A program made the translations under genes and the position numbers. The notes beneath the pieces are model-generated. The model worked only from the letters and a program-made list of their open reading frames with translations. It did not search any database and was not told where the DNA came from. Source: Acidobacteriota bacterium (GTDB taxonomy: Bacteria; Acidobacteriota; CAIWXX01). From it: a stretch of DNA of 64,000 nt. Shown here piece by piece: positions 51,829-64,000 of this stretch. Numbering within the stretch: position 1 is the stretch's first letter; every line of letters starts with the position of its first letter. Location: positions 1 to 64,000 of the forward strand of contig JBFMAF010000045.1 in NCBI GenBank assembly GCA_040755995.1, given 5' to 3'.

Positions 51829-53025
51829 CTAGCGCTTGAAATCCGCAGCCTCCTGCTGAGTTATGGTTATGTACAGGAACGGATCATTCGGCGTGTTGTA
51901 GGTGCGATAGCGCCCATAGTCCTCCACCGGCTCTATTTGATCAGCCTCCGTGAAGTCGTTGAAGGTCGTGACGGAGATGTATGCCCCGGCGCTGGGGTTG
52001 CCATCCCAAGCAAGATGTGTATCCGTCCAAGCAGTGCGATAGTGGTCCGCAGAGCGCTCCACTCTGCGGGGATTGTCCGAGAATTCGCTGGGATCGAAGC
52101 CCGGCATAACGGTTGGTATGGCGATTGCGGGGGCGTGACTGATGACCTTGGCGATCCACTCCTTGTAGGCCCAAGTCTCATCATAGCCTCTCGCCCATAG
52201 AAACAACCCGTCAGCCGCGCGCTTCACGATCTTCCGGGCTACATCGACCGAATTGTCTTTGAGGAAGCCTTTGAACTCAGGAGTGCCGTTGGATATGATG
52301 AGGGGAGGCGCTCCACCTCCGTATTTCGTTCTGTTATTCCTGACCTGATTGAACACCCCTGCAAACGTGGCATCCTCGCCCGCGCCTGTGTTCCCAAAGT
52401 GCATGAGCACCGGGCGCCCACCGATCCTCCAATAGCAGGAATCGTATGTAACAGCGGGGTTGTACGCGTATTTCTGCAAGATGTAGTAGAACTGGTCCTC
52501 CAGCGTCCCAGATGCCACTGAATCCTGGTCTCGCAAGATCGCCACCTTCAATCCTTTTGCCATCGCCTCCTGCATTATCTCAGGCATGAGCTCGTCGGGC
52601 AGGCGCTCTGGAGTCTCGGGAGCGCCGCGGTCCTTCCGCCCCCACCAAGACACCACGACGACATCGATGTTGGCGTCTGCCATCCATTTCATGTGCCACT
52701 TGATGCTGGTTCTCCATTTCACCCGGCCGTCACTGTCGACGGCACGATAGGTAGTAGCCGGTGTGCTGGTGTACGGGCCGAGCAAGGGGTAGTACGGGCT
52801 GGCGATGTCCTCCGGCGGGTAGTGCCGGTGCGGGTCGTTCCCGTTCCACTTAGACCAGCGCCCATCCACGGGCTTTGCCCTGTACCAGGGAAAATAGAAT
52901 GCCAACACCTTCTTGTCAGTGGTCTGCCCGGTTGCTTCATTCGGTGGTTCGGCACTGACCGTGACCAGAGGCCACGCAAACACCACCATCGCCACAGTCG
53001 CCAAGAGACGGATTCGTGAGTTCAT
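51829..53025 (-). CDS. Secreted GH99-like (endo-alpha-mannosidase-like) glycoside hydrolase
   Basis: AAAGGAG RBS, signal peptide, VLAFYFPWY, YYPLLGPY, IDVVVVSWWG, MPGFD, TTFNDFTEADQIEP. Confidence 0.75.
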   Translation of the reverse strand: MNSRIRLLATVAMVVFAWPLVTVSAEPPNEATGQTTDKKVLAFYFPWYRAKPVDGRWSKWNGNDPHRHYPPEDIASPYYPLLGPYTSTPATTYRAVDSDGRVKWRTSIKWHMKWMADANIDVVVVSWWGRKDRGAPETPERLPDELMPEIMQEAMAKGLKVAILRDQDSVASGTLEDQFYYILQKYAYNPAVTYDSCYWRIGGRPVLMHFGNTGAGEDATFAGVFNQVRNNRTKYGGGAPPLIISNGTPEFKGFLKDNSVDVARKIVKRAADGLFLWARGYDETWAYKEWIAKVISHAPAIAIPTVMPGFDPSEFSDNPRRVERSADHYRTAWTDTHLAWDGNPSAGAYISVTTFNDFTEADQIEPVEDYGRYRTYNTPNDPFLYITITQQEAADFKR

Positions 53026-53196
53026 GGTTGCTCCTTTGATGAATTTGAATATGCTGTTCTTGGGCGTGCCACCCTGCGCGGTAGGCCAGAGCGTCTGGTA
53101 TACACGGGATTGGGAAGCCGGCGCAGCAGTCCAGTTGCACAGGCTCGAGCTGGATGCAGGCGTTCGGCCGAAAGCGCTTCTTGGAGGGTTGGCCAT

Positions 53197-53540
53197 CTAC
53201 CGACTGCCTCCGGGAGCACCGCGGCGTCTGCGACGAGCTAGTGCTACCGGCCTCTTGGCCCCGGACGCTTCTCTGTGAGCTGTGTGCCTGGGGCTCGATT
53301 CTGCGCAGGCACCCTCGATTCCAAGCGCCCTGCGAAACAACGGAATTGGATCGCAGTCGAGTGTACGGATGAGTTCGACGAATTCGATTACATCCAGTCT
53401 GCGTTCGCCAAGCTCGTACTTGGACACATAGGACTGGGGTCTACCCAAACGTGCAGCCAACTCACGCTGGGAGAGTCGCGCGGATCTCCGCGCTTCGATG
53501 AGAAGAGCCCGGAATGGGAGTACGCGCCCGACTTGATCAT
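53197..53540 (-). pseudogene. XRE-family HTH regulator, frameshifted near its 5' end
   Basis: MIKSGAYS in one frame; [45 protein letters not shown] in another frame with no start of its own; C-terminus looks run-on. Confidence 0.7.
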
Positions 53541-53748
53541 GGCATAGATTCCTCTCCCGAGTCCCCTACCACAACTGGCTGCCTGAACCCAAAATCGGTT
53601 CAACCAGGATGCCGCGAATACGCTCGGGTTGGACGAGAACCGCGCGGGGTTCGGCAGCTAGTAGCACGCTCAGGGTGTCCGTAGCTCGGCTGCATCCTAC
53701 TTACATTCGTGGCCATGGATATGCTATGAATGGCGGGGGTCAACAGGC

Positions 53749-55734
53749 TTGAGCAACAAGTCGGATGGTAGGCGGGGCAGAGGACTCTTTCTGTTAGCTG
53801 ACTGGGTTCTGATCGGGTTATCGGCTCTGGTCGCTGCGTGCATCGTGCTGGTGCTGTGGAGGGGCGGTCTCAGATTCGACCTGCACGGTACTCCGGTCGG
53901 TTTCGCGACCGCGACTGGAGCTGTTTTGGTCCTGCTGGGTCTCCTGCTCTCCAGATTGTTGCTCCACGCACTGCCGCCGGGAAGACGCAGGCTTCTCCCA
54001 CCCGATTCGTCACTCCTCTTCCTCCTGTCTCTCGGGATCTACCTCTCGAACGGCTCTACCCTGGGAACAGGCGACACGCTACCCGCGCGCTTTCTGCCCA
54101 TGAGCATTCTGCGGGACGGAGATTTCTATTTGGACGAGGCGGTGCCGCTGTTCAAGGCGGGTCCACTCCACGCACTGCGCTTCGTCGAGGCCACCGGCAA
54201 GGACAAGCCTGTCCTGGGCGGACCCGCGCTGGCGGGGCGTCCGGGAGTCCACTATGTCTCCGACTATCCTGTTGGCGCACCGGTGCTCGCTGTCCCCGTC
54301 TACCTTGTCTCTGGCTTGGGCAACGTGACTCTCGAAAGTCCGCTGTTGGAGGAATTGGAGAAACTGGCCGGCTCGCTCATGATTGCGCTGTCGGTCCTAG
54401 TCCTGCACCTGTGCCTGAAGCGGGTCACCAGCCCAACTTGGGCTGCCCTCGTCTCAGTGGCGTACGCTTTCGGGACCAGCAGCCTCAGCGTGAGCTCTCA
54501 GGCGCTCTGGCAACACGGCCCAGCTCAGTTGTGCATCACGGCGAGTCTCTATTGTCTGGTTCGCGGTCGCTCGGAACTGCGCTGGATGGCGTTGGCCGGG
54601 GCTCCCCTTGCGATGGCTGTTGTGTGCCGGCCGACGAATGCCCTGCTGTTCCTTCCGGTCGTTGTGTATCTACTCCTGAGCTACCGGCGCTGCTTCCTTC
54701 CCTTTGTGGCCTGGTGCCTCCCTCCAGTGCTGTTCCAGCTCTGGTACAACTACACCTACTTTCACTACCCGTTGCGCACTCAGTACTCTGGGAGCTCGGT
54801 TGATCTATGGAGCGGCGAAATCATACCCGCCCTCGCGGGCCTGCTATTGAGTCCGGGCCGCGGCCTTCTGGTTTACTCCCCCATATTCATCCTCTCGTTG
54901 TGCGGGACCGTTGCCGCGGCTCGCAGACCCCCTGACTTCATGGTGCTCGCGTTGGGCTCTGGTGCTCTGCTGGTGATAGCGCTTCACAGCGCTTGGAAGG
55001 TGTGGTGGGGCGGCCTGTGCTACGGGCCGCGCTTGCTCGCTGACATCACACCAATCCTGGCCTTCTGCATGTACCCCGTGGGAGCCGTCTTGGAGCGTCG
55101 CACAAAGGTGCTGCTACCCATTGTCGTGTCACTGCTCGCATGGTCGGTCTGCGCGCATTCGATCGGGGCGTTCTGGGACGACGGGCGATGGACTGGGTAC
55201 TCGATTCCGGGTGGCCTCTGGTCGTGGTCCGACAACCCGCTGGTCAACCCTCCGCGAGAGATCCTCAACCGCTTCCTCATTCGATACCGGCACCTCCCAA
55301 CGAGTGCGGGGTCCGCAGAGTACCTCCGGGCGCACTATGAAATCGAGAGCGCCGCACTTCGCGGCGTCGTTGGAAAGGTTCCCGAGCTCACACTGCGGGC
55401 GAGTAACACGGGGCCCGTCGTGTGGCTCGCCTGGCCCAAGGCAGCGAAGGGAACCGTCTCGTTCGAGTGGGAGATGTTGGCGGATGGAAAGCGGATCGGG
55501 GGACAAGGTGGGAGGATTCCGCTTCGACATGACGTCTTCCCTGGGGAGTCGTATGAGCTGACGGCCCCGATCGTTCTGGAGCACCCCGGCATCTACACCC
55601 TCCGCGTCGGGCTCAGGTGCGAGGGAGAGTTCTCGCTTGAGGCACTCGGGATCGCCCCCGCCGAGATCCCCGTGACGATCGACGAGCCGCGCAAGCCGAG
55701 CAGGCGGAACCGGCAGAGCAAGCGCGAGGAGTGA
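53749..55734 (+). CDS. Polytopic membrane protein, GT-C-like glycosyltransferase with C-terminal Ig-like domain
   Basis: About 12 TM segments; GDTLPARFLP, SDYPVG, SQALWQH, RPTN, SPGRGLLVYSP, WWGG..YGPR; tail ASNTG..W..DVFPGES..PGIYTL; start uncertain. Confidence 0.65.
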   Translation: MSNKSDGRRGRGLFLLADWVLIGLSALVAACIVLVLWRGGLRFDLHGTPVGFATATGAVLVLLGLLLSRLLLHALPPGRRRLLPPDSSLLFLLSLGIYLSNGSTLGTGDTLPARFLPMSILRDGDFYLDEAVPLFKAGPLHALRFVEATGKDKPVLGGPALAGRPGVHYVSDYPVGAPVLAVPVYLVSGLGNVTLESPLLEELEKLAGSLMIALSVLVLHLCLKRVTSPTWAALVSVAYAFGTSSLSVSSQALWQHGPAQLCITASLYCLVRGRSELRWMALAGAPLAMAVVCRPTNALLFLPVVVYLLLSYRRCFLPFVAWCLPPVLFQLWYNYTYFHYPLRTQYSGSSVDLWSGEIIPALAGLLLSPGRGLLVYSPIFILSLCGTVAAARRPPDFMVLALGSGALLVIALHSAWKVWWGGLCYGPRLLADITPILAFCMYPVGAVLERRTKVLLPIVVSLLAWSVCAHSIGAFWDDGRWTGYSIPGGLWSWSDNPLVNPPREILNRFLIRYRHLPTSAGSAEYLRAHYEIESAALRGVVGKVPELTLRASNTGPVVWLAWPKAAKGTVSFEWEMLADGKRIGGQGGRIPLRHDVFPGESYELTAPIVLEHPGIYTLRVGLRCEGEFSLEALGIAPAEIPVTIDEPRKPSRRNRQSKREE

Positions 55735-55822
55735 ACGCCCCTCTCCTCCGCCCGTCTCGCCACCGCCGCAGCCGCGCGGCCGTGGGCCAGCGTGGGCCAG
55801 CCCGCGCAAATGCCCGTCGCCC

Positions 55823-56308
55823 TTACGCTCGCTGGCGCTTCCAGGCCTCGTAGACCTTGTACATCTGCTGGATGTGGCCCGGCACGTGGCGCTCGTAGGT
55901 GTCGAGCCACTGCTCGAGCGTCATCGTGCCGCGCTCCGAGTGCTCCATCGTCAGGCTCCACGCCGAATCGGGTAGCGTCTTCAGGAGCTCGTATGTGGAC
56001 TTGCGGAGGAGGCGGAAAAGCTCGAGCGCGTCCTTTACGCTGCGGGTAGGATAGTTCACAGTGCGCGCCCAGAGGTCCTGATCATAGGCCATGACGGTCT
56101 TGCCGGGTTCCGCAAGGGCCGTACGGCATCGGATGTATCCGTGGACCTCGCTGTCCGCCAGATGAAAGACGATCTCCTTGATGCTCCAGCTATCAGGCGC
56201 CGGCTTGTACGACCACATGTCTGCCTGGAAGCGAGTGAGAATGGCTTCCAGTGCCTCGGGCGCGCTGCCGTATGCCTCGATCTTCAGGCTGAGTTCGTCC
56301 TTGTTCAT
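55823..56308 (-). CDS. DinB-family protein
   Basis: WSIKEIVFHLADSE, YDQDLWA, RHVPGHIQQ; GGAGG RBS. Confidence 0.9.
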   Translation of the reverse strand: MNKDELSLKIEAYGSAPEALEAILTRFQADMWSYKPAPDSWSIKEIVFHLADSEVHGYIRCRTALAEPGKTVMAYDQDLWARTVNYPTRSVKDALELFRLLRKSTYELLKTLPDSAWSLTMEHSERGTMTLEQWLDTYERHVPGHIQQMYKVYEAWKRQRA

Positions 56309-56391: not shown

Positions 56392-58383
56392 TCACTCGAC
56401 TCGGAACGTGTCCTCTTTCTGGATCGTATACTTCTGCTGATCACCCAGCCGGCACTTGACCTTCCACGTGAGCGTCACGGGCACAGCGTAGTCAGGGCTG
56501 CCGAGAATACCGATGACGTATTCGTACCGGCCGGGCTGCTCCTCGTTGATCATATAGTATGCCTCGTAGCCTCCCCACCCGTGGTCCGATGGGAAGAAAA
56601 TCTTCAAGCGAGGGATCAGGAAGTACCCTGGGCTGGCGTTGTCCACCTTGATCGTGGCGGTCATGGCCACCCAGGTGCCCGGCTTGAAGCTCTCGGCCTT
56701 CCCGCCCACCTCGAATGTGTCAAAGTCGAAATGCCGCGTCTGCAGCGTCTCAATTGTGGCCACAGCGGACTTGTTGCCGGGATCCTCACCCGACAGCCCT
56801 CGGTCCTCGATGATCCCGTTCAGCGCGCCGAGGTCGGCATCATGGTAGAGGGCCTTCTCTGCCTCGAGCAGCCCGTCCCTGAAATCGAAGAAGTCGGCGC
56901 GCGGGCCGAGGCGCGTGAGCGCATCGAAGAGCAGCGATACGGCCTTGTCAGGGCCCAGCGCCCGTCGCATCTCCCAGTACAGCCCGCCGAAGATCAGCCC
57001 CGTGTAGTGCGACTCAGCTTGACCATACTCCGGATCCTGGACGTCGTCCGGATATCGGTTGCGGTTGTCGATGTTGCGTCCGACGAACTTCCCCGACCCG
57101 CGATAGCTCAGCGCCCACTCGCCCATCTTGCTGTTGCCGCTCATCTGGCCCGCCACCGAGTCGCTGAACCCCTCATGGATCGCTCCCGAGTACACGTGCT
57201 CGTAGTGCATGATCAGGCCCCTCTCGATCCTGTCGAGCACCGCATGGCCGTACTCGTGCCAGATGACGTCGGCGTCCATTCCGAAGTTGTGGAACTCCTC
57301 GCCGGAGCCGAACACCAGGACGCCAGTGGACGAGTAGCGGTAGTCACGGGTGTAAAAGGCGTTGTCGTATCCCTTCGAGAGATCTTCCGGATCCTGCACG
57401 TTGACCACCACCGGAATTGTGCCGTTCACCGCGTTAGTGAGCTCGTTTGCGACCAGGTAATCGTGGAGCTGCGTGACGTGGTAGTACCCCATGACCTCCG
57501 CAAAGCGTTTGTCCGCCGGTTCGTAAACGTAGCGGTCGCTGTCGCTCGCCGCGGTAGTGAACCGTGCCATCTGAAACCCGTTCAGGAACGTCGTGTTTCC
57601 GTTCGCGTTGTATGTCTGGACCCAGCTTCCCTTGAGGGTGGAGCTGTTGCCAAGGTGAAGGAGATCGACCTGGACCGGGCTCTTGGTCGTCTTCGGGTTC
57701 TCGGCGTATACCTGACCTCTGCCCGTGACCTCGTCCAGTGCGAGCCTTTTCACGAAATACGTCGTTCCAGGTTCCTCCGCCGAGACCAAGAACAGCCACG
57801 TCCCATGCCGCGTCAGCGCTTCGGTCTGCCAGCACAGGCGCAAGCGGTCGTCGACCTGGTGATAGACCAGCTTCGATGCAGCAGGGTATTCACCACCCCC
57901 ATACATGGCATCCAGGAACCTGAGCGCCGACTGTTCGGATTGTGCCGCGCTGACCACAGGGTCTTTGACGCGGGGCAGTCCGGGTACTCTGTAGGCCTCC
58001 ACCGCATCTATGCTGCCATCCGCCAGCACGTGAACCGAGACCTGCGCATCCAACAGGGGTATGCCTCCGTACCTGAGCTCAAACGGAACCCGGATGCCGG
58101 ATGGCCCCCTGACGCCCGGAAGGCGGACGACTTCGAACCCAGGGCTGCCGATGAGCACCGGTGCAGCCCAGCTCATGTAGCGCTCGGCAATGCCCACCGC
58201 CGCACCGGCGCAGGTGGGAGAAATCGGACCTGAGAGGCGCAGCCTCTTCCCTTCTGCACCGACTACCACCTTGACTCCATCCAGACCTTTCATCAAGTGT
58301 TCGATAGTGGCCGATGGCGAGCCGATTCCCAGGATCAAGGGTGAAATCACAACCAGAATCAATAGAATTCTTCTCACGCTCAT
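56392..58383 (-). CDS. Secreted zinc metallopeptidase (M36/M4, fungalysin/thermolysin-like) with propeptide
   Basis: Signal peptide, FTP/PepSY-like pro-region, DNAFY, DADVIWHEYGH, AIHEGFSD, ESHYTG. Confidence 0.85.
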   Translation of the reverse strand: MSVRRILLILVVISPLILGIGSPSATIEHLMKGLDGVKVVVGAEGKRLRLSGPISPTCAGAAVGIAERYMSWAAPVLIGSPGFEVVRLPGVRGPSGIRVPFELRYGGIPLLDAQVSVHVLADGSIDAVEAYRVPGLPRVKDPVVSAAQSEQSALRFLDAMYGGGEYPAASKLVYHQVDDRLRLCWQTEALTRHGTWLFLVSAEEPGTTYFVKRLALDEVTGRGQVYAENPKTTKSPVQVDLLHLGNSSTLKGSWVQTYNANGNTTFLNGFQMARFTTAASDSDRYVYEPADKRFAEVMGYYHVTQLHDYLVANELTNAVNGTIPVVVNVQDPEDLSKGYDNAFYTRDYRYSSTGVLVFGSGEEFHNFGMDADVIWHEYGHAVLDRIERGLIMHYEHVYSGAIHEGFSDSVAGQMSGNSKMGEWALSYRGSGKFVGRNIDNRNRYPDDVQDPEYGQAESHYTGLIFGGLYWEMRRALGPDKAVSLLFDALTRLGPRADFFDFRDGLLEAEKALYHDADLGALNGIIEDRGLSGEDPGNKSAVATIETLQTRHFDFDTFEVGGKAESFKPGTWVAMTATIKVDNASPGYFLIPRLKIFFPSDHGWGGYEAYYMINEEQPGRYEYVIGILGSPDYAVPVTLTWKVKCRLGDQQKYTIQKEDTFRVE

Positions 58384-58556
58384 CTCCCGCAGTAGGTTCA
58401 TGATAATGCACGCCTTCCCCAAAATCCAGCTGCCTACCTCTTCCCAATCCGGCGCCAATGCATTCGTGGTAACGATCACCGACCCACCGGATGACCGCGG
58501 TCACTTCAAATCTCAGGCCTCTTGGTAGATAATATAGGGGTGGAGAAATCTTCCTG

Positions 58557-60278
58557 TTGAGCGAGTACATCGTCGCCTGTTGGAGCTGCACGGGCGAGTA
58601 CGACGCCGTCAGCGCCGTCTGGTGCAATTGCGATTCCCGCAATCCGACCAAGCTCTGCCCCTACTGCCTCCGCTGTTTCTGCAGCGCCTCGCCGGAATTC
58701 GCTGACAATTTCTGGAAAAATGCCCCGAATGAGCTGCTCGAGGAGAAGTACTCCCTGAACAGCACAAAAGCACAGCTCGGTCACATACTGGTTGCGGGTG
58801 GATTGATCACGGTCGCGCAGCTCGTCCGAGCCGCCGCGCTATCGAAGGCGACCGGGAAGAAGCTTGGTGAGGCCTTGGTTTCATTGGGGCTTGTGACCGC
58901 CGAGCAACTCGAGCAGGCCCTCGCGATGCAGAAGCCGGCGGGCGGCTCGGCCGCGGTGAAGGCGCAGGCCGCGCGCGCGTCGGCGGGCAGCTCCGCTGCC
59001 GTGGCAGGGCCCACCGGCCTGCCCGGCGGTCGCGTGGAGGCAGGCGAGTCTGTCCAGTCTCCGTCGCCGCTTTCCTCCTCGTCTCCCGATCTGGTCAAGG
59101 ACACGCTCAACAACCTGATGCTCGCAGCCCTCAAGCGCCATGCCTCAGCCCTGTACATCGAGCCGTCGGAGGAGGAAGTGGTGGTCCGAGTGCGGATCGA
59201 CGGGGTCTTGTTCAAGCTCAAGACGCTGCCGGCCGCGTGGCAGCCGCAGATCATGGAGAGGGTGAAGCAATGGGCCAGGCTGCAGGCCTCCGAGACGCGG
59301 ATGCCCCAGACCGGGCGGATGAGCCTTCGCGTGGGCGAGCGCACGTTTGACATGATTGTGCAGACGCTGCCGTCGGCGCAGGGGGAAGGGGCGGGTCTGC
59401 GCATCATCAATCGTGAGTTGCTCAAGCAGAATCTGTCCGCGCTAGGGTTTGAAGAGCGAGACTACACCAATTTCATCCGTGTCGTAGACGGTACTCACGG
59501 GCTCGTCGTCCTGAACGGGCCGCTGTTCAACGCTGTGACTGAGACCGCCTACTCCGTGCTGAATCACCTCGTGTTGAAGAACAGGAAGGTGGTTTCGCTC
59601 GAATCGCCTATCACATCGGCGTTGACCGGGGTCAACCAACTGGAGATCCAGGAGAGCCGCGGATTCGATTTCGCGCAAGCTCTGAAAACCATTTTGAATT
59701 TGAGCCCTGATGTGATATTTCTTGGCGACATACCCGATGGCGAGACACTCAAGTTGGCGTCGCGGATGGCTTCGGCGATTCAGGTGTTCGCCGCTCTGGA
59801 TTGTTCGAATGCATTCCAGGTGTTCGAACGGCTGAAGATGCTTTCCGGGAACGCGGCTCATCCGCTTGCGGCTTTGCAGCTCGTTGTCAGCCAGCGCGTT
59901 ATCCGCCGCAATTGCCCCCACTGCATCGAAAGAAAGGCCAACACGCCTTCGCTTGCCTCGGAGATGGGGCTGTCTGGAGACGAGATCCACCTCGTCCCCG
60001 AGGTGGCGCGCGGAAAGGGATGCTCCAACTGTAACGACCTCGGATACTCGGGGCGGAAGATACTGTTCGAGACGCTCGTGGTGGACGACGAGGTCCGCAA
60101 TGTACTCACCTCCGGCGGTGGCCAGGAGGACTTCGAGCACGCGGCGGCTGCCCAGGACTTCCGGTCGCTCAGGATGCTCCACCTTCGCGAGGTGGCGAAG
60201 TTGGCGACGAGCCCGGAGGAGTTCATCCGATGCGCGTATCCTCGCCCGTTGCTGAGGCGAATCTATAGGGTAAAATAG
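58557..60278 (+). CDS. PilB/GspE-family protein with degenerate ATPase motifs, N-terminal 8-Cys domain and MshEN (paralog 1)
   Basis: TTG start; CWSC..WCNC..CPYCLRCFC; LGHILV..GLIT / KLGEALV..GLV; VRVRIDGVL, PQTGR; Walker A position GPLFNAVTET; SQRVIRRNCPHC..GCSNC..GYSGR. Confidence 0.85.
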   Translation: MSEYIVACWSCTGEYDAVSAVWCNCDSRNPTKLCPYCLRCFCSASPEFADNFWKNAPNELLEEKYSLNSTKAQLGHILVAGGLITVAQLVRAAALSKATGKKLGEALVSLGLVTAEQLEQALAMQKPAGGSAAVKAQAARASAGSSAAVAGPTGLPGGRVEAGESVQSPSPLSSSSPDLVKDTLNNLMLAALKRHASALYIEPSEEEVVVRVRIDGVLFKLKTLPAAWQPQIMERVKQWARLQASETRMPQTGRMSLRVGERTFDMIVQTLPSAQGEGAGLRIINRELLKQNLSALGFEERDYTNFIRVVDGTHGLVVLNGPLFNAVTETAYSVLNHLVLKNRKVVSLESPITSALTGVNQLEIQESRGFDFAQALKTILNLSPDVIFLGDIPDGETLKLASRMASAIQVFAALDCSNAFQVFERLKMLSGNAAHPLAALQLVVSQRVIRRNCPHCIERKANTPSLASEMGLSGDEIHLVPEVARGKGCSNCNDLGYSGRKILFETLVVDDEVRNVLTSGGGQEDFEHAAAAQDFRSLRMLHLREVAKLATSPEEFIRCAYPRPLLRRIYRVK

Positions 60279-60284
60279 AGGAGC

Positions 60285-62135
60285 ATGGCAGAGTACATCA
60301 TCCAGTGCTGGAATTGCCTGGGCGAGTTCGACGTTTTCTCGGCAGTCTGGTGTGGGTGCGACCCAAAGAATCCGACCAAGCTCTGTCCATTCTGCCTGAA
60401 CTGCTTCTGCAGCGCATCGGCCGAGTACAAGGGGCTGTTCTGGAAGAACGCGCCGCCGCAGCTTGCAGAAGAGCGCGCCACCCTGAACAAGTCCAAGGAC
60501 CTGCTGGGCGACCTGCTGGTCAGATCCAAGAAGATCACTACCGACCAGCTCTTGCAGGCGCTGAAGCAGCAGAAGGAGAGCGGGGAGAGACTCGGCGAGG
60601 TGCTCATCGGGATGGGATTCATCACAAAGGACGACCTCGACGTGATCCTCGCTCAGCAGCACAGGACCCTCACGGCTGACCTCAAGAACAGGAGAGCGGA
60701 TGCGTCGCTGGTCCAGAACCTCGGCCTCGATTTCTGCTTCCAGCACGTGGTACTCCCGATCGAGCGCGAGGTGTTGCCGAACAAGACGTTGACCACCATG
60801 GCCATGTCGAATCCGCAGAACGTAGCCGCGATAGAGTACGCGCAGAAGCGCCTGGGTTCGCAGATCGTCCCGATGTTCGCCCCAGCCGACGAGATCGTCG
60901 AGCAGCTGAATGCCCTGAAAGCTCAGGGGATCGGCGTGACTGGTCCAGGGGCGGTGGCCCCAGGCGACCTGGCGGGACTGAACGAGCAGAGAATCAAGTC
61001 GACGATGAACAACCTCATCGCGACGGCTCTCCAGACGGGCGCCTCCGATCTGTACCTCGAGCCGGGCCCCGGCGAGATCTCGGTCCGCGCCCGCATCGAC
61101 GGCGTGCTCTTCAAGATGCAGCCGGTCCAGCGGGACGCCGAGGAGGCTCTTTTCGCCCGGATAAAGCTGCTGGCGAAGTTGAATCCGCAGGACCGCGGGC
61201 TGCCCCAATCCGGCAAGATCATGTTCAAGTCGTCGGCCACCAACTACGAGCTCCAGGTGCAGACGTTCCCGACACCGGCCGGCGAGAGCCTGAATCTCAG
61301 GTTCTTCGACAAGAGCCGGCTCGTTAGGCCCCTGAATGAGATCGGGCTGAATAGCGTCGAGCTGACCTATGTTCAATCGGCCACAACTGAGCAGCAAGGA
61401 CTGATCATCGTGAGCGGGCCGCTCTTCAACGCGACTCCCACCACCATGTACTCGCTGCTGCAGAGCCTGGTTGCAGAGGGACGGCGGATCGTGACGATAG
61501 AGAACACGGCACAATGCGCGCTCGGTGGGGTCACGCAGATGGAGCTGCGGCCGGCTGAGGGAATCGGATTCGAGAAGGCCATAGGCGCCGCGATGAGCCT
61601 GGAGCCGCAGATCGTGGCCATATTTGACTTCAACGATGTGGAGATGGCGAGGGCCGTCGCCAGGCTGGCCAATTCACTCCTCGTCCTCGTCGAAGTGGAC
61701 GCGAGATCTTCGACTCTGGCCATCCCTGCCATGTCCGCCCTCGGATACCCGCCGGATGTCCTCGCCCGTCATCTGCGACTCGTGGTGAATCAGCGACTGG
61801 TGCGCAAGCTTTGCCCGCACTGCCGCGAGCAGATTCAGCCCACCGACTCGCTGCTGGCGGATCTGGACCTGTCCGAAGAGGCTTCAAAGCTCCCGCTCTA
61901 CAAGGCCAAGGGTTGCTCACGGTGTCACAACATCGGTTATTCTGGACGGATCCCGATGTACGAGGTCATCTATCCGGTCGACTCCATTCGCGAAGCGGTG
62001 GCATCAAAGGCGCCGGCCGCCGAGCTCGAACGCCTGGCAACCCGCATGGGCCTCCTCACGCTCGGCCAGAACTGCCTCAACAAGGTCAGCGAAGGCCTCA
62101 CAACCCCGGACGAGTACCTCAAGGCCGGGTTTTGA
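60285..62135 (+). CDS. PilB/GspE-family protein with degenerate ATPase motifs, N-terminal 8-Cys domain and MshEN (paralog 2)
   Basis: GAGGAG RBS; CWNC..WCGC..CPFCLNCFC; LLGDLLV / RLGEVLI..GFI; AMSNP, GASDLYLEP, RIDGVL; Walker A position GPLFNATPTT; NQRLVRKLCPHC..GCSRC..GYSGR. Confidence 0.87.
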   Translation: MAEYIIQCWNCLGEFDVFSAVWCGCDPKNPTKLCPFCLNCFCSASAEYKGLFWKNAPPQLAEERATLNKSKDLLGDLLVRSKKITTDQLLQALKQQKESGERLGEVLIGMGFITKDDLDVILAQQHRTLTADLKNRRADASLVQNLGLDFCFQHVVLPIEREVLPNKTLTTMAMSNPQNVAAIEYAQKRLGSQIVPMFAPADEIVEQLNALKAQGIGVTGPGAVAPGDLAGLNEQRIKSTMNNLIATALQTGASDLYLEPGPGEISVRARIDGVLFKMQPVQRDAEEALFARIKLLAKLNPQDRGLPQSGKIMFKSSATNYELQVQTFPTPAGESLNLRFFDKSRLVRPLNEIGLNSVELTYVQSATTEQQGLIIVSGPLFNATPTTMYSLLQSLVAEGRRIVTIENTAQCALGGVTQMELRPAEGIGFEKAIGAAMSLEPQIVAIFDFNDVEMARAVARLANSLLVLVEVDARSSTLAIPAMSALGYPPDVLARHLRLVVNQRLVRKLCPHCREQIQPTDSLLADLDLSEEASKLPLYKAKGCSRCHNIGYSGRIPMYEVIYPVDSIREAVASKAPAAELERLATRMGLLTLGQNCLNKVSEGLTTPDEYLKAGF

Positions 62136-62166: not shown

Positions 62167-64000
62167 TCAGTCCCCGGGCTCGGCCGCCTGTTGCAGCCTG
62201 AGCAGCCCTTTGTCCTGTTCCCTCAGCAGTGCTCTTCCATCAGGTCCGACGCGAACAACTTTGGACACAGCCTTCACCTCCGCTGCGCCGGCCCGTTCCT
62301 GGACGAGCAGAGACACGAGCTGCAGGGCGCACCAATTCTGATCGTACACGTCGCCTTCGCTCATGCCCTTTCGCAGCACATCCTTGAGGCCTTCGATCGG
62401 ATAGGGGACGATCCAGTTGCGATGGAGCCGGACATGATCGAGGAGCTGCTCGGCTTTGGTCCTGCTGGGAGCACCATCGAGACCGATCGCCCCCCACGCA
62501 GCGTCCTCGCGCGGTGCAGTCACGAACGGAAGGATTCTCAGTCCGTACTCCCGCTGCTCCTCGTAGGAGAGTGGAAATGACGCCGGGTCGCCGAGAAAGG
62601 CTCTCAGCTGAAGAGCCGGCCCCATCGGCAGATATGCATTCGGCAGCGCGGAAAATTTCAACCGCAGGGAATTCAACAACTCACCGTACTCGTTCAGACC
62701 GATTGCCTCACCCTTCGCCCACCCGGTGTACTTCTGAGCCATCAGGAACTGGCTTGAATAGGCGGCCGAATCGGAACCAAACAGGAAGGACAGAGGGACC
62801 GAGGATCCCATGAACATCCGCCTGCCTGCGATGTAGTGCAGCCGCGGGTAGTCCATCACCTCGGTGCCCAGGTGGGCAAAGCCGGATACCAGGTACCCCG
62901 ATGGGAAGATCTCCCGCAGCAGAATGGCATCGATCGATGGCATGTCTATTTCGCTGAGCGACTCCTTGACCTTGGGATTGGACTCGATCACTCGTGCGGC
63001 ACGGCCGATCTCTGCGGCTCCCAACGGCTTGTTCGAGCAGACGAACAGCAGGTCACCTGGGGCCATCATGAAAACCCGCACCTCGCGGAACTCCTGCCGA
63101 ATTGTGTTCATGATGATCCCCAGCATCTCCGTGTCCGCAAGATACACGTGGACCCACTGGGCCAGAATGCCGTCATCCGTGAGATGGTTCTTTGCGAGCT
63201 GATAGAACTCCTCCGAGAAGAGCAGATCCACTCCAGTCACCCACAGATTGGACGGCTCGGATGTGATCACATCCCACTTCTTACCGCCCCTGCCGATGAC
63301 CCGGAACGCGTCGGCAACGTGGATGCGCACTCTCGCGTCTTTTTCGATGCCGTGCGCGAAGTCCCTGAATGAGGGCAGCGCGCGAACTACAGTCTCCGAG
63401 ATCTCGGCCACGTCTATGGTTCCCGCGTCCGAGTACAGAGCGAGCTCGCCCGCCGTCACCCCGGTGCCGAGCCCGATGACCATGATGTTCCTTCTTGCCG
63501 CCGCGAACAATGCCGGAACATGCGCCGATAGCTTCAGGGTGTACATGTCGCCGATCGTAGACGAGTCTGACTTGCCGTTGATGACTATGCTCAAAGGTCT
63601 CTTCTCGGCTCCCCGCAAGGGCGCCCCCTCGATCACAGTCACCGACCCGGTGGGTCCGTCGCCCGCGAACTTCACGTTCAGCCCTCTGAGGTACTCCTCG
63701 AAGAAGCGGTCGGGGCCGTCGTAGGAATGCGCCATCGGTGAGTGCTGGAGGAACGTTCCGATCGCGAAGTGATTCCGGTTGTACATCGGAGCGAAGACGA
63801 CGCAGATGACGGCGACGGCCGTCACAATGCTCGCAGCGGCCACCGACTTCCTGGAGACAAACCATGCGGTACAGAAGGTGGAGCAGGATGCCAGCAGAAA
63901 AGCCGCCGTGAATACGCGCGCGTTGTCCAGGAAGTAGAAGAAGGCGATTCCTCCGATCAGGCTCCCGAGAAGGCTGCCGAGTGTGTTGCAGGAGAAGAGG
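62167..64000 (-). CDS. Fused membrane (MFS-like)/spermidine synthase-like protein, 5' part outside the window
   Basis: Frame open to the window edge (NTLGSLLGSL), INGKSD, VIGLGTGVT, VAEIS, ADA, WDVITSEPSN.W, LFSEEFY, G..AQW. Confidence 0.85.
   Translation of the reverse strand, partial: LFSCNTLGSLLGSLIGGIAFFYFLDNARVFTAAFLLASCSTFCTAWFVSRKSVAAASIVTAVAVICVVFAPMYNRNHFAIGTFLQHSPMAHSYDGPDRFFEEYLRGLNVKFAGDGPTGSVTVIEGAPLRGAEKRPLSIVINGKSDSSTIGDMYTLKLSAHVPALFAAARRNIMVIGLGTGVTAGELALYSDAGTIDVAEISETVVRALPSFRDFAHGIEKDARVRIHVADAFRVIGRGGKKWDVITSEPSNLWVTGVDLLFSEEFYQLAKNHLTDDGILAQWVHVYLADTEMLGIIMNTIRQEFREVRVFMMAPGDLLFVCSNKPLGAAEIGRAARVIESNPKVKESLSEIDMPSIDAILLREIFPSGYLVSGFAHLGTEVMDYPRLHYIAGRRMFMGSSVPLSFLFGSDSAAYSSQFLMAQKYTGWAKGEAIGLNEYGELLNSLRLKFSALPNAYLPMGPALQLRAFLGDPASFPLSYEEQREYGLRILPFVTAPREDAAWGAIGLDGAPSRTKAEQLLDHVRLHRNWIVPYPIEGLKDVLRKGMSEGDVYDQNWCALQLVSLLVQERAGAAEVKAVSKVVRVGPDGRALLREQDKGLLRLQQAAEPGD

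Follow-up and report, generated by a model that had tools for sequence, protein, structure and literature searches.

A stretch of 64,000 nucleotides from an Acidobacteriota bacterium (contig JBFMAF010000045.1 of assembly GCA_040755995.1; hereafter, the window) carries a tandem pair of genes that resemble the motor ATPases PilB and GspE and lack their catalytic residues, which raises the question of what such retired motors might do. Gene A (58557..60278; + strand, like every feature of the pair described below) is an intact open reading frame (ORF) of 573 amino acids with a TTG start, and its orthologs use GTG or ATG at the corresponding codon; gene B (60285..62135) is an intact ORF of 616 amino acids that starts with ATG. 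The 6-bp spacer between them (60279..60284) is of equal length in G000, G001 and G002, suggesting translational coupling. An earlier reading of the same DNA (the original prediction) had described two PilB-like genes with these coordinates and this gap, the motifs GPLFNAVT and GPLFNATP (59517..59540 in A and 61416..61439 in B, the pseudo-Walker A sequences), ESPIT and ENTAQ, and LGDIPD and IFDFND, the absence of the His-box histidines and the retention of RIDG, PQxG, QRxxR and a tetra-cysteine motif in both proteins, all of which read as described.

In profile searches, both proteins matched PF00437 and only B also matched PF05157. Their scores against TIGR02538 (PilB) and TIGR02533 (GspE) (262 and 261 bits for A, 278 and 263 bits for B) did not reach the cut-offs of 675.65 and 630.25 bits; the genome's own PilB scored 787 bits, above the cut-off. 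The PilB/GspE-type core, comprising N2D and CTD in A, spans 59094..60227 in A (PF00437) and 60984..62120 in B, and includes an intact tetra-cysteine zinc motif in each (59913..60032, with C453, C456, C489 and C492 of A; 61812..61925, with C510, C513, C544 and C547 of B). Using the residue numbers of Geobacter PilB, anchored via the genome's own PilB and agreeing with PMC5424180 for R271, R286, T327, E357, E395, D398, E400, T411, H413, H420 and R455, we found that K331, E357, E395, H413, H420 and R271 are absent from both A and B. Indeed, the E357 and E395 positions hold Thr and Asp in A and Gln and Asp in B, the H413 and H420 positions hold Ile and Asp in A and Leu and Asp in B, and the arginine finger R271 is replaced by Ile and Gln in the pair. 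RIDG, R286, E353 and R455 are present in both. The AlphaFold model of B (predicted local distance difference test, pLDDT, of 92) superposes on the PilB structure 5TSH with a Foldseek template modelling score of 0.92–0.93 by target and a root mean square deviation (rmsd) of 1.9–2.1 Å, and B retains the entire PilB N1D; the PilB fold of A is assigned by sequence only (PF00437). Both proteins appear to be derived from PilB/GspE, and the missing Walker A sequence GxxxxGK[TS] would place them outside the motor ATPases, the P-loop probably being blocked by a bulky residue at the Gly328 position. A complex prediction for the A core with the B core scored 0.14, with the mark at 0.32; it gives no verdict, and we use it neither for nor against any reading.

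We next defined the dead family as proteins with an N-terminal eight-cysteine (8-Cys) domain followed by a PilB core, pooled from homolog listings and fetched loci; of 181 sequences, three failed the length filter, leaving 178 aligned and 168 non-redundant cores that form 35 clusters at 50% identity. Catalytic positions are rarely retained among these 168 cores (K331 in 1, E357 in 2, E395 in 14, H413 in 2, H420 in 2, R271 in 2 and T327 in 0), whereas all 72 active PilB/GspE controls have each of K331, T/S332, E357, E395, H413, H420 and R271. The Walker A lysine is likewise absent from all of the best 120 listed homologs of B. Scaffold residues (RIDG, R455 and the zinc tetra-cysteine motif) are retained at 93–99% across the family, with the RIDG Arg in 162 of the 168 cores, R455 in 162, E353 in 165 and each zinc cysteine in 167. 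At the Walker A Lys position Ala is the most frequent residue (39%), and the 178 aligned cores contain 67 distinct P-loop hexamers, of which GPLMNG is the commonest. The shared GPLFNA that had been taken as a clade signature turned out to be partly coincidence: among the 178 cores it occurs in this genome's two genes only, and the orthologs read GPLFNG for B and GPLFNS, GPLFNF, GPHFNS or GPMFNS for A. Given the 67 hexamers and the confinement of the hexamer's Ala to this genome, we rejected GPLFNA as a clade marker.

Between the G000, G001 and G002 orthologs, the ratio of nonsynonymous to synonymous substitution rates (dN/dS) was 0.20 for A (one measurable pair, the two others being saturated) and approximately 0.09–0.15 for B. 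These values bear on whether A and B are merely recently decayed motor duplicates, for which one could cite that one of the 40 family loci we read (mean 16.5 kb) is frameshifted and that some distant paralogs are heavily eroded. However, the ORFs of the pair are intact, dN/dS does not exceed 0.2, 35 clusters at 50% identity lack nearly all catalytic residues, and it is the catalytic but not the scaffold residues that were selectively lost; recent decay is refuted by dN/dS and by this family-wide selective catalytic loss, and we consider it exceedingly improbable. The dead family is a conserved Acidobacteriota pseudo-ATPase family, and with dN/dS at approximately 0.09–0.2 it is under purifying selection and not in decay. 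The original prediction had also argued for selection, and the Walker A lysine persists in a single core of the 168. Its expectation of a conserved clade of pairs was only partly borne out: the low dN/dS stands, GPLFNA is not the signature, and the pair is not the basic unit: a single copy is present at most of the 40 loci read. The tandem pair, near hisS-aspS and with a constant 6-bp gap, was found only in its own family, in 3 of 3 genomes (G000, G001 and G002); in the other loci read the gene is single, and two genomes carry a further paralog that is eroded and unlinked. These eroded Cys+core paralogs (L159:825-2435 and L160:5975-7642) retain chiefly the tetra-cysteine motif. The frameshift splits the family gene at L166:5422-7291 in G284 (86% complete) and reflects either an assembly error or a pseudogene.

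In a quick tree of 95 rows built from the cores only, all 42 dead-family rows fell on one side of a branch with an SH-like approximate likelihood ratio test (SH-aLRT) value of 98, in a tree in which long branches are flagged and which does not tell PilB from GspE as the parent. A and B sit in separate, deeply split clades, so their duplication is old. The named homologs are labelled Acidobacteriota (Vicinamibacteria and Thermoanaerobaculia) and Ca. Fischerbacteria, and in databases members of the dead family are mislabelled as motors ('PilB' or 'TadA'). The same genome has another degenerate PilB-like gene, its third, outside the window (L050:9128-10867, G000:C10), which lacks the Cys domain, reads AASPTASRK in the Walker A region and has the tetra-cysteine motif; its orthologs, found in 7 of 41 genomes (each with the Cys family as well), form a separate long-branch clade, a second dead family.

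The 8-Cys domain, which the original prediction overlooked, shows the highest conservation between A and B, with 63% identity compared with 32% in the core. It occupies residues ~3–60 (58557..58736 in A, with C8, C11, C23, C25, C34, C37, C40 and C42; 60285..60464 in B) and follows the pattern C-x2-C-x10-W-C-x-[C/D/H]-x6/8-C-x2-C-x2-C-F-C-x9-F-W. Across 390 distinct domains, seven cysteines are near-invariant and the fourth ligand is C, D or H, and the domain is modelled with a pLDDT of 94, from which we infer a fold that may bind two metals. Comparisons that took in known zinc-finger families (RING/FYVE/PHD, RanBP2, zinc ribbons) gave no clear match: at most 4 of 27 members hit any one Pfam family (best E 0.0014), the best match among PDB sequences had an E of 0.065, no atlas match was clear, Foldseek gave a best E of 3.2, and VIA gave a best Z of 3.1, with a RanBP2 finger at Z 2.2 (rmsd 1.4 over 30 residues); this lack of clear matches does not prove a new fold.

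The domain is carried by 71 of 301 sampled genomes of the phylum, G107 having been removed from an initial 72 (E 2.8e-4, internal stop), and by 384 representatives at 50% identity. An unpublished genome, G025, contributes to the tallies and to the candidate active controls, and is nowhere the sole basis of a claim. Among the 99 proteins scanned, out of 150 listed of the 384 matches, the partner was a receiver domain (REC) in 55 (2 of them also with GGDEF-EAL), a PilB core in 23, MshEN only in 6 (some perhaps fragments), GGDEF only in 1 and EAL only in 1, with no family in the other 13. The 8-Cys domain sits directly before a GGDEF domain and before canonical receivers, 69 of the 73 parsed receivers having the phospho-acceptor Asp; in this genome, it occurs on A and B only. 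In G149, G188 and G278 (92–94% complete), the gene stops after the Cys and MshEN domains, and no dead core was found anywhere in these three genomes, in which PilB- and GspE-like matches are present. Because such core-less genes exist, the N-terminal module is the most constant part and the core is dispensable in some lineages. Stand-alone Cys+MshEN proteins of ~225 amino acids lacking the ATPase core are encoded at L163:5279-5974, L164:5727-6434, L165:5359-6222 and L026:7986-8657. Large proteins with two tandem units of Cys domain and receiver, the named ones mostly from Thermoanaerobaculia, were also seen (L039:7591-11115, P0122-P0137 and P0277-P0305), the L039 protein having in addition a membrane segment at its N terminus and a long, charged region that resembles a coiled coil. 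In P0204, P0195, P0233, P0178 and P0181, the Cys domain is found with GGDEF alone, after GGDEF-EAL, or between a pyridoxal phosphate-dependent enzyme domain and a receiver.

The metal/redox response once suggested for the pair has gained a concrete candidate in the 8-Cys domain, and it is conceivable that this domain is the real sensor (of zinc, Fe-S or thiol redox state), with MshEN and the dead core carrying or amplifying its state. Across the 390 domains, seven of its cysteines are near-invariant and the fourth ligand position varies between C, D and H, as is typical of metal ligands; it sits immediately before the receivers and a GGDEF domain, and it is better conserved between A and B than any other part. 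Nevertheless, its conserved surface aromatics (Y, W, F and FW) suit a binding patch, small Cys domains of this kind are often structural protein-binding modules, and the two motif glutamines of MshEN, needless for a mere carrier, are 96–97% conserved; overall, we judge a primary sensor role of the 8-Cys domain unlikely.

The proposed presence of the MshEN motif for cyclic di-GMP (c-di-GMP) held up, as both proteins exceed the cut-off of 38 for NF053729 (53.4 for A, 63.3 for B). In B, the tandem motif of MshEN_N (60501..60659) has both glutamines, Leu where motif 1 has Arg, and Lys in place of the turn Gly of motif 1, and it is followed by an MshEN_C subdomain (60675..60923; PF05157, 40.3 bits against a cut-off of 23.1). 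Both glutamines are present in 5 of 5 B-clade proteins, in which the first motif residue is Leu and the Leu clusters are present. In A, the weakened MshEN_N (58770..58931) has a motif 1 that begins with Gln and has lost its terminal Gln and an intact motif 2, and a low-complexity Ala/Ser/Pro linker (58932..59081) stands in for MshEN_C. In 6 of 6 proteins of the A clade, the terminal Gln of motif 1 is Ser or Ala, the first position is Gln and an Ala/Ser/Pro linker replaces MshEN_C. All 6 A-clade proteins also end in a basic amphipathic C-terminal tail (60228..60275 in A, ending RRIYRVK), which is found in none of the B proteins and is possibly a membrane anchor. Among the other dead-family members, the two motif glutamines are retained in 97% and 96% of 157.

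Work on Thermus PilF showed that single Gln-to-Glu changes cut c-di-GMP affinity 77–158-fold and that K167L, which puts Leu at the first motif position, raises affinity to 2 nM (PMC11731258), and MshEN_N by itself suffices for binding (PMC5013675). Based on these data, B is predicted to bind c-di-GMP tightly, as a high-affinity receptor, and its partner A to bind it weakly or not at all.

How might these parts work together? We propose that A and B are retired PilB motors acting as nucleotide-free c-di-GMP receptors or scaffolds, a proposal that we regard as the best supported and as evenly balanced between right and wrong. In this scheme, the signal would be sensed by the N-terminal 8-Cys+MshEN module, and the dead core, free of nucleotide, would provide a platform for oligomers, resting in the open (apo) state and forming its ring there. 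Such a state is expected because R455, the arginine that contacts the open, nucleotide-free interface in Geobacter PilB (PMC5424180), is retained while catalytic and nucleotide-sensing residues are gone. The output might be a surface behaviour (pilus polarity or biofilm) exerted via a partner, like the signalling of exopolysaccharide (EPS) by apo-PilB in Myxococcus, where PilB K327A signals EPS as a dominant gain of function and the apo state was proposed as the signalling form (PMC5544727); in an acidobacterial PilB, moreover, the c-di-GMP and ADP sites communicate (PMC6957770). The observations behind the proposal are a family-wide loss of catalytic residues with fold and scaffold retained, purifying selection, an MshEN motif, a Cys domain that is mobile between signalling proteins, and genomes that have lost the core. 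A more elaborate version, in which A and B are co-translated into a hetero-ring of retired motors, with the A tail as membrane anchor, B as nanomolar c-di-GMP site and docking N1D, and the 8-Cys domains as the link to the receiver/GGDEF network, is rather speculative; if true, it would be a machine dedicated to apo-PilB signalling, a natural equivalent of the Walker A mutant of Myxococcus.

The nucleotide-free state itself has an alternative, namely that the core binds a nucleotide non-canonically (e.g. ADP or phosphate) and senses the energy state. A basic residue at position 286 (Arg or Lys in 163 of 168), E353 (165 of 168) and P326, G330 and T334 are indeed retained in the family, and one member has GxxxxGKT. 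As K331, E357 and R271 are lost, the Gly328 position is bulky in 162 of 168 and the retained P-loop residues can be structural, we find an energy sensor very unlikely.

Several observations weigh against a nucleotide-free receptor or scaffold. P0179, the sole member with GxxxxGKT, also has Glu at 395; it is otherwise highly diverged and lacks E357, the His box, both arginine fingers, RIDG and R455. Further residues that are invariant in active PilB/GspE, such as R430, T411 and G412, are also lost in the family, so that a PilB-like ring is not assured, and motif 1 of A has neither Arg nor Gln, so that A may not bind c-di-GMP at all. Genes flanking the family are mostly housekeeping genes (hisS-aspS, gcvTHP, hem, selA). 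PilB was above cut-off in 243 and MglA in 205 of the 301 sampled genomes, and a comparison of two tables shows MglA in all 71 true 8-Cys carriers, but both are so widespread in the phylum, and their occurrence so tied to kinship, that this co-occurrence cannot discriminate between functions. Finally, the 40 loci contain some pointers towards the motor: pilB-pilT-pilC in four, all of one family, and an active PilB tail-to-tail with the dead gene in one more; two others contain a prepilin motif, and the remaining 33 contain none of these. In the family concerned (f19), pilB-pilT-pilC-pilS-pilR follows downstream of the dead gene in the same orientation, and in G088 nothing but selA and one unknown gene separates them; in more genomes of this family pilB is, by coordinates, ~10–12 kb away. 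The active PilB-type ATPase in G128 (L168:2591-5416) carries a long extension at its N terminus that resembles the genome's DUF4388 protein.

This synteny is what one would expect if the dead proteins were a brake or gate on the pilus motor, with dead subunits joining PilB rings or filling the PilM/PilC socket and c-di-GMP acting as the switch. Such a role would also suit the retention of RIDG, R455 and the pore residue D398 (124 of 168), the whole PilB N1D of B, the PilB above cut-off in the own genome and the existence of the PilB protein inhibitors CpiA, Tip and Aqs1 (PMC11656802). On the other hand, an obligate PilB partner should follow PilB's slow surface, whereas end branches in the quick tree measure 0.15 to >3 for the dead family and ~0.06–0.2 for PilB; E400 is E or D in only 68 of 168 cores and R430 is lost; the core is missing from three genomes that retain PilB; and 35 of 40 loci have no match to pilus reference proteins, four of the other five being from one family. 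Given this several-fold faster evolution of the dead core relative to PilB, and its complete loss from three genomes, a brake is disfavoured and seems to us improbable, although not remote.

Returning to the pair itself, there is no PilB, PilT, PilC, GspF, PilMNO, secretin or MglAB homolog and no prepilin motif within 20 kb around it, in agreement with the original observation that no pilin, PilC/GspF or secretin gene is nearby. Elsewhere, the genome has an intact pilB-pilT-pilC-pilS-pilR, a gspF-gspE-secretin cluster and pilM-N-O, this machinery lying on contigs C28, C52 and C55, and it has mglB-mglA and 15 GGDEF matches above cut-off, likewise on contigs other than that of the pair. The mglB-mglA genes, at L052:715-1818 (G000), are of the Myxococcus type, and the genome has four MglA-like matches. 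A conserved operon partner was rejected, as the neighbours differ by family and are mostly housekeeping genes. A predicted lipoprotein gene (L089:8241-9533), with no family match, lies beside selA and the dead gene in four loci of two families. In the window, the pair is flanked by an M36/M4-type metallopeptidase gene (56392-58479, - strand), which also adjoins the pair in G001, and by a membrane-fused spermidine-synthase-like gene (62167-64000, - strand). Between hisS and the pair, 51829-56308 holds genes for a GH99-like hydrolase, a PMT-type glycosyltransferase and DinB as well as a short ORF (53197-53460) that by eye looks XRE-like with a helix-turn-helix, all of which are absent at the corresponding place in G001 and G002. 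A promoter and terminator scan around the pair was uninformative; a weak sigma-70-like site upstream of A (58505..58533, + strand) has 9 of 12 consensus matches and nothing beyond the consensus.

In the literature we searched, which did not cover subscription journals, we found no description of the dead family, nor was there one in the available text of PMC11656802, PMC10333796 and PMC4316618, in line with the novelty that had been supposed. The analysis describes a tandem pair whose two members look specialised, forms without the core and a second dead family. Walker motifs, the catalytic Glu and Arg fingers were called completely conserved in PilT-like ATPases (PMC5424180), a rule that the dead family breaks across many families of one phylum while retaining the scaffold. 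The family also offers natural, stable material for studying how nucleotide-free PilB signals apart from its function as a motor (PMC5544727), and it brings to light an unnamed signalling domain present on receivers and c-di-GMP enzymes. In the A/B pair, a c-di-GMP site predicted to be strong can be compared directly with one predicted to be weak.

Compared with known systems, A and B share the N1D-N2D-CTD layout, the fold, RIDG, R455 and the tetra-cysteine zinc motif with PilB of Geobacter metallireducens (5TSG/5TSH) and GspE of the type II secretion system, but differ in lacking the Walker A Lys, E357, E395, the His box and R271, in their extra 8-Cys domain and in their location outside a pilus operon. 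Like the MshEN receptors V. cholerae MshE, Thermus PilF (GSPII-B) and Chloracidobacterium PilB, they have the tandem 24-residue motif, with MshEN_C in B; in those receptors, however, MshEN is fused to active ATPases, whereas here the ATPase is dead and the first half-site of A is degenerate. M. xanthus PilB K327A has likewise lost the Walker A Lys, and signalling by nucleotide-free PilB was proposed from it (PMC5544727), but it is an engineered point mutant of a motor with EPS/Dif output and not, like A and B, a natural dedicated paralog family. The inhibitors CpiA, Tip and Aqs1, which could serve as a model for a brake, are described in PMC11656802 as peptides or proteins binding PilB and not as dead PilB paralogs. 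A functional likeness may exist with FimX and LapD (PMC10333796, PMC11656802), in which a retired enzyme serves as c-di-GMP receptor or adaptor, FimX acting on PilB; the dead family would work like such a degenerate-enzyme receptor carrying an unnamed domain, with the difference that in FimX and LapD dead GGDEF/EAL domains, and in A and B the secretion ATPase itself, are the retired enzyme.

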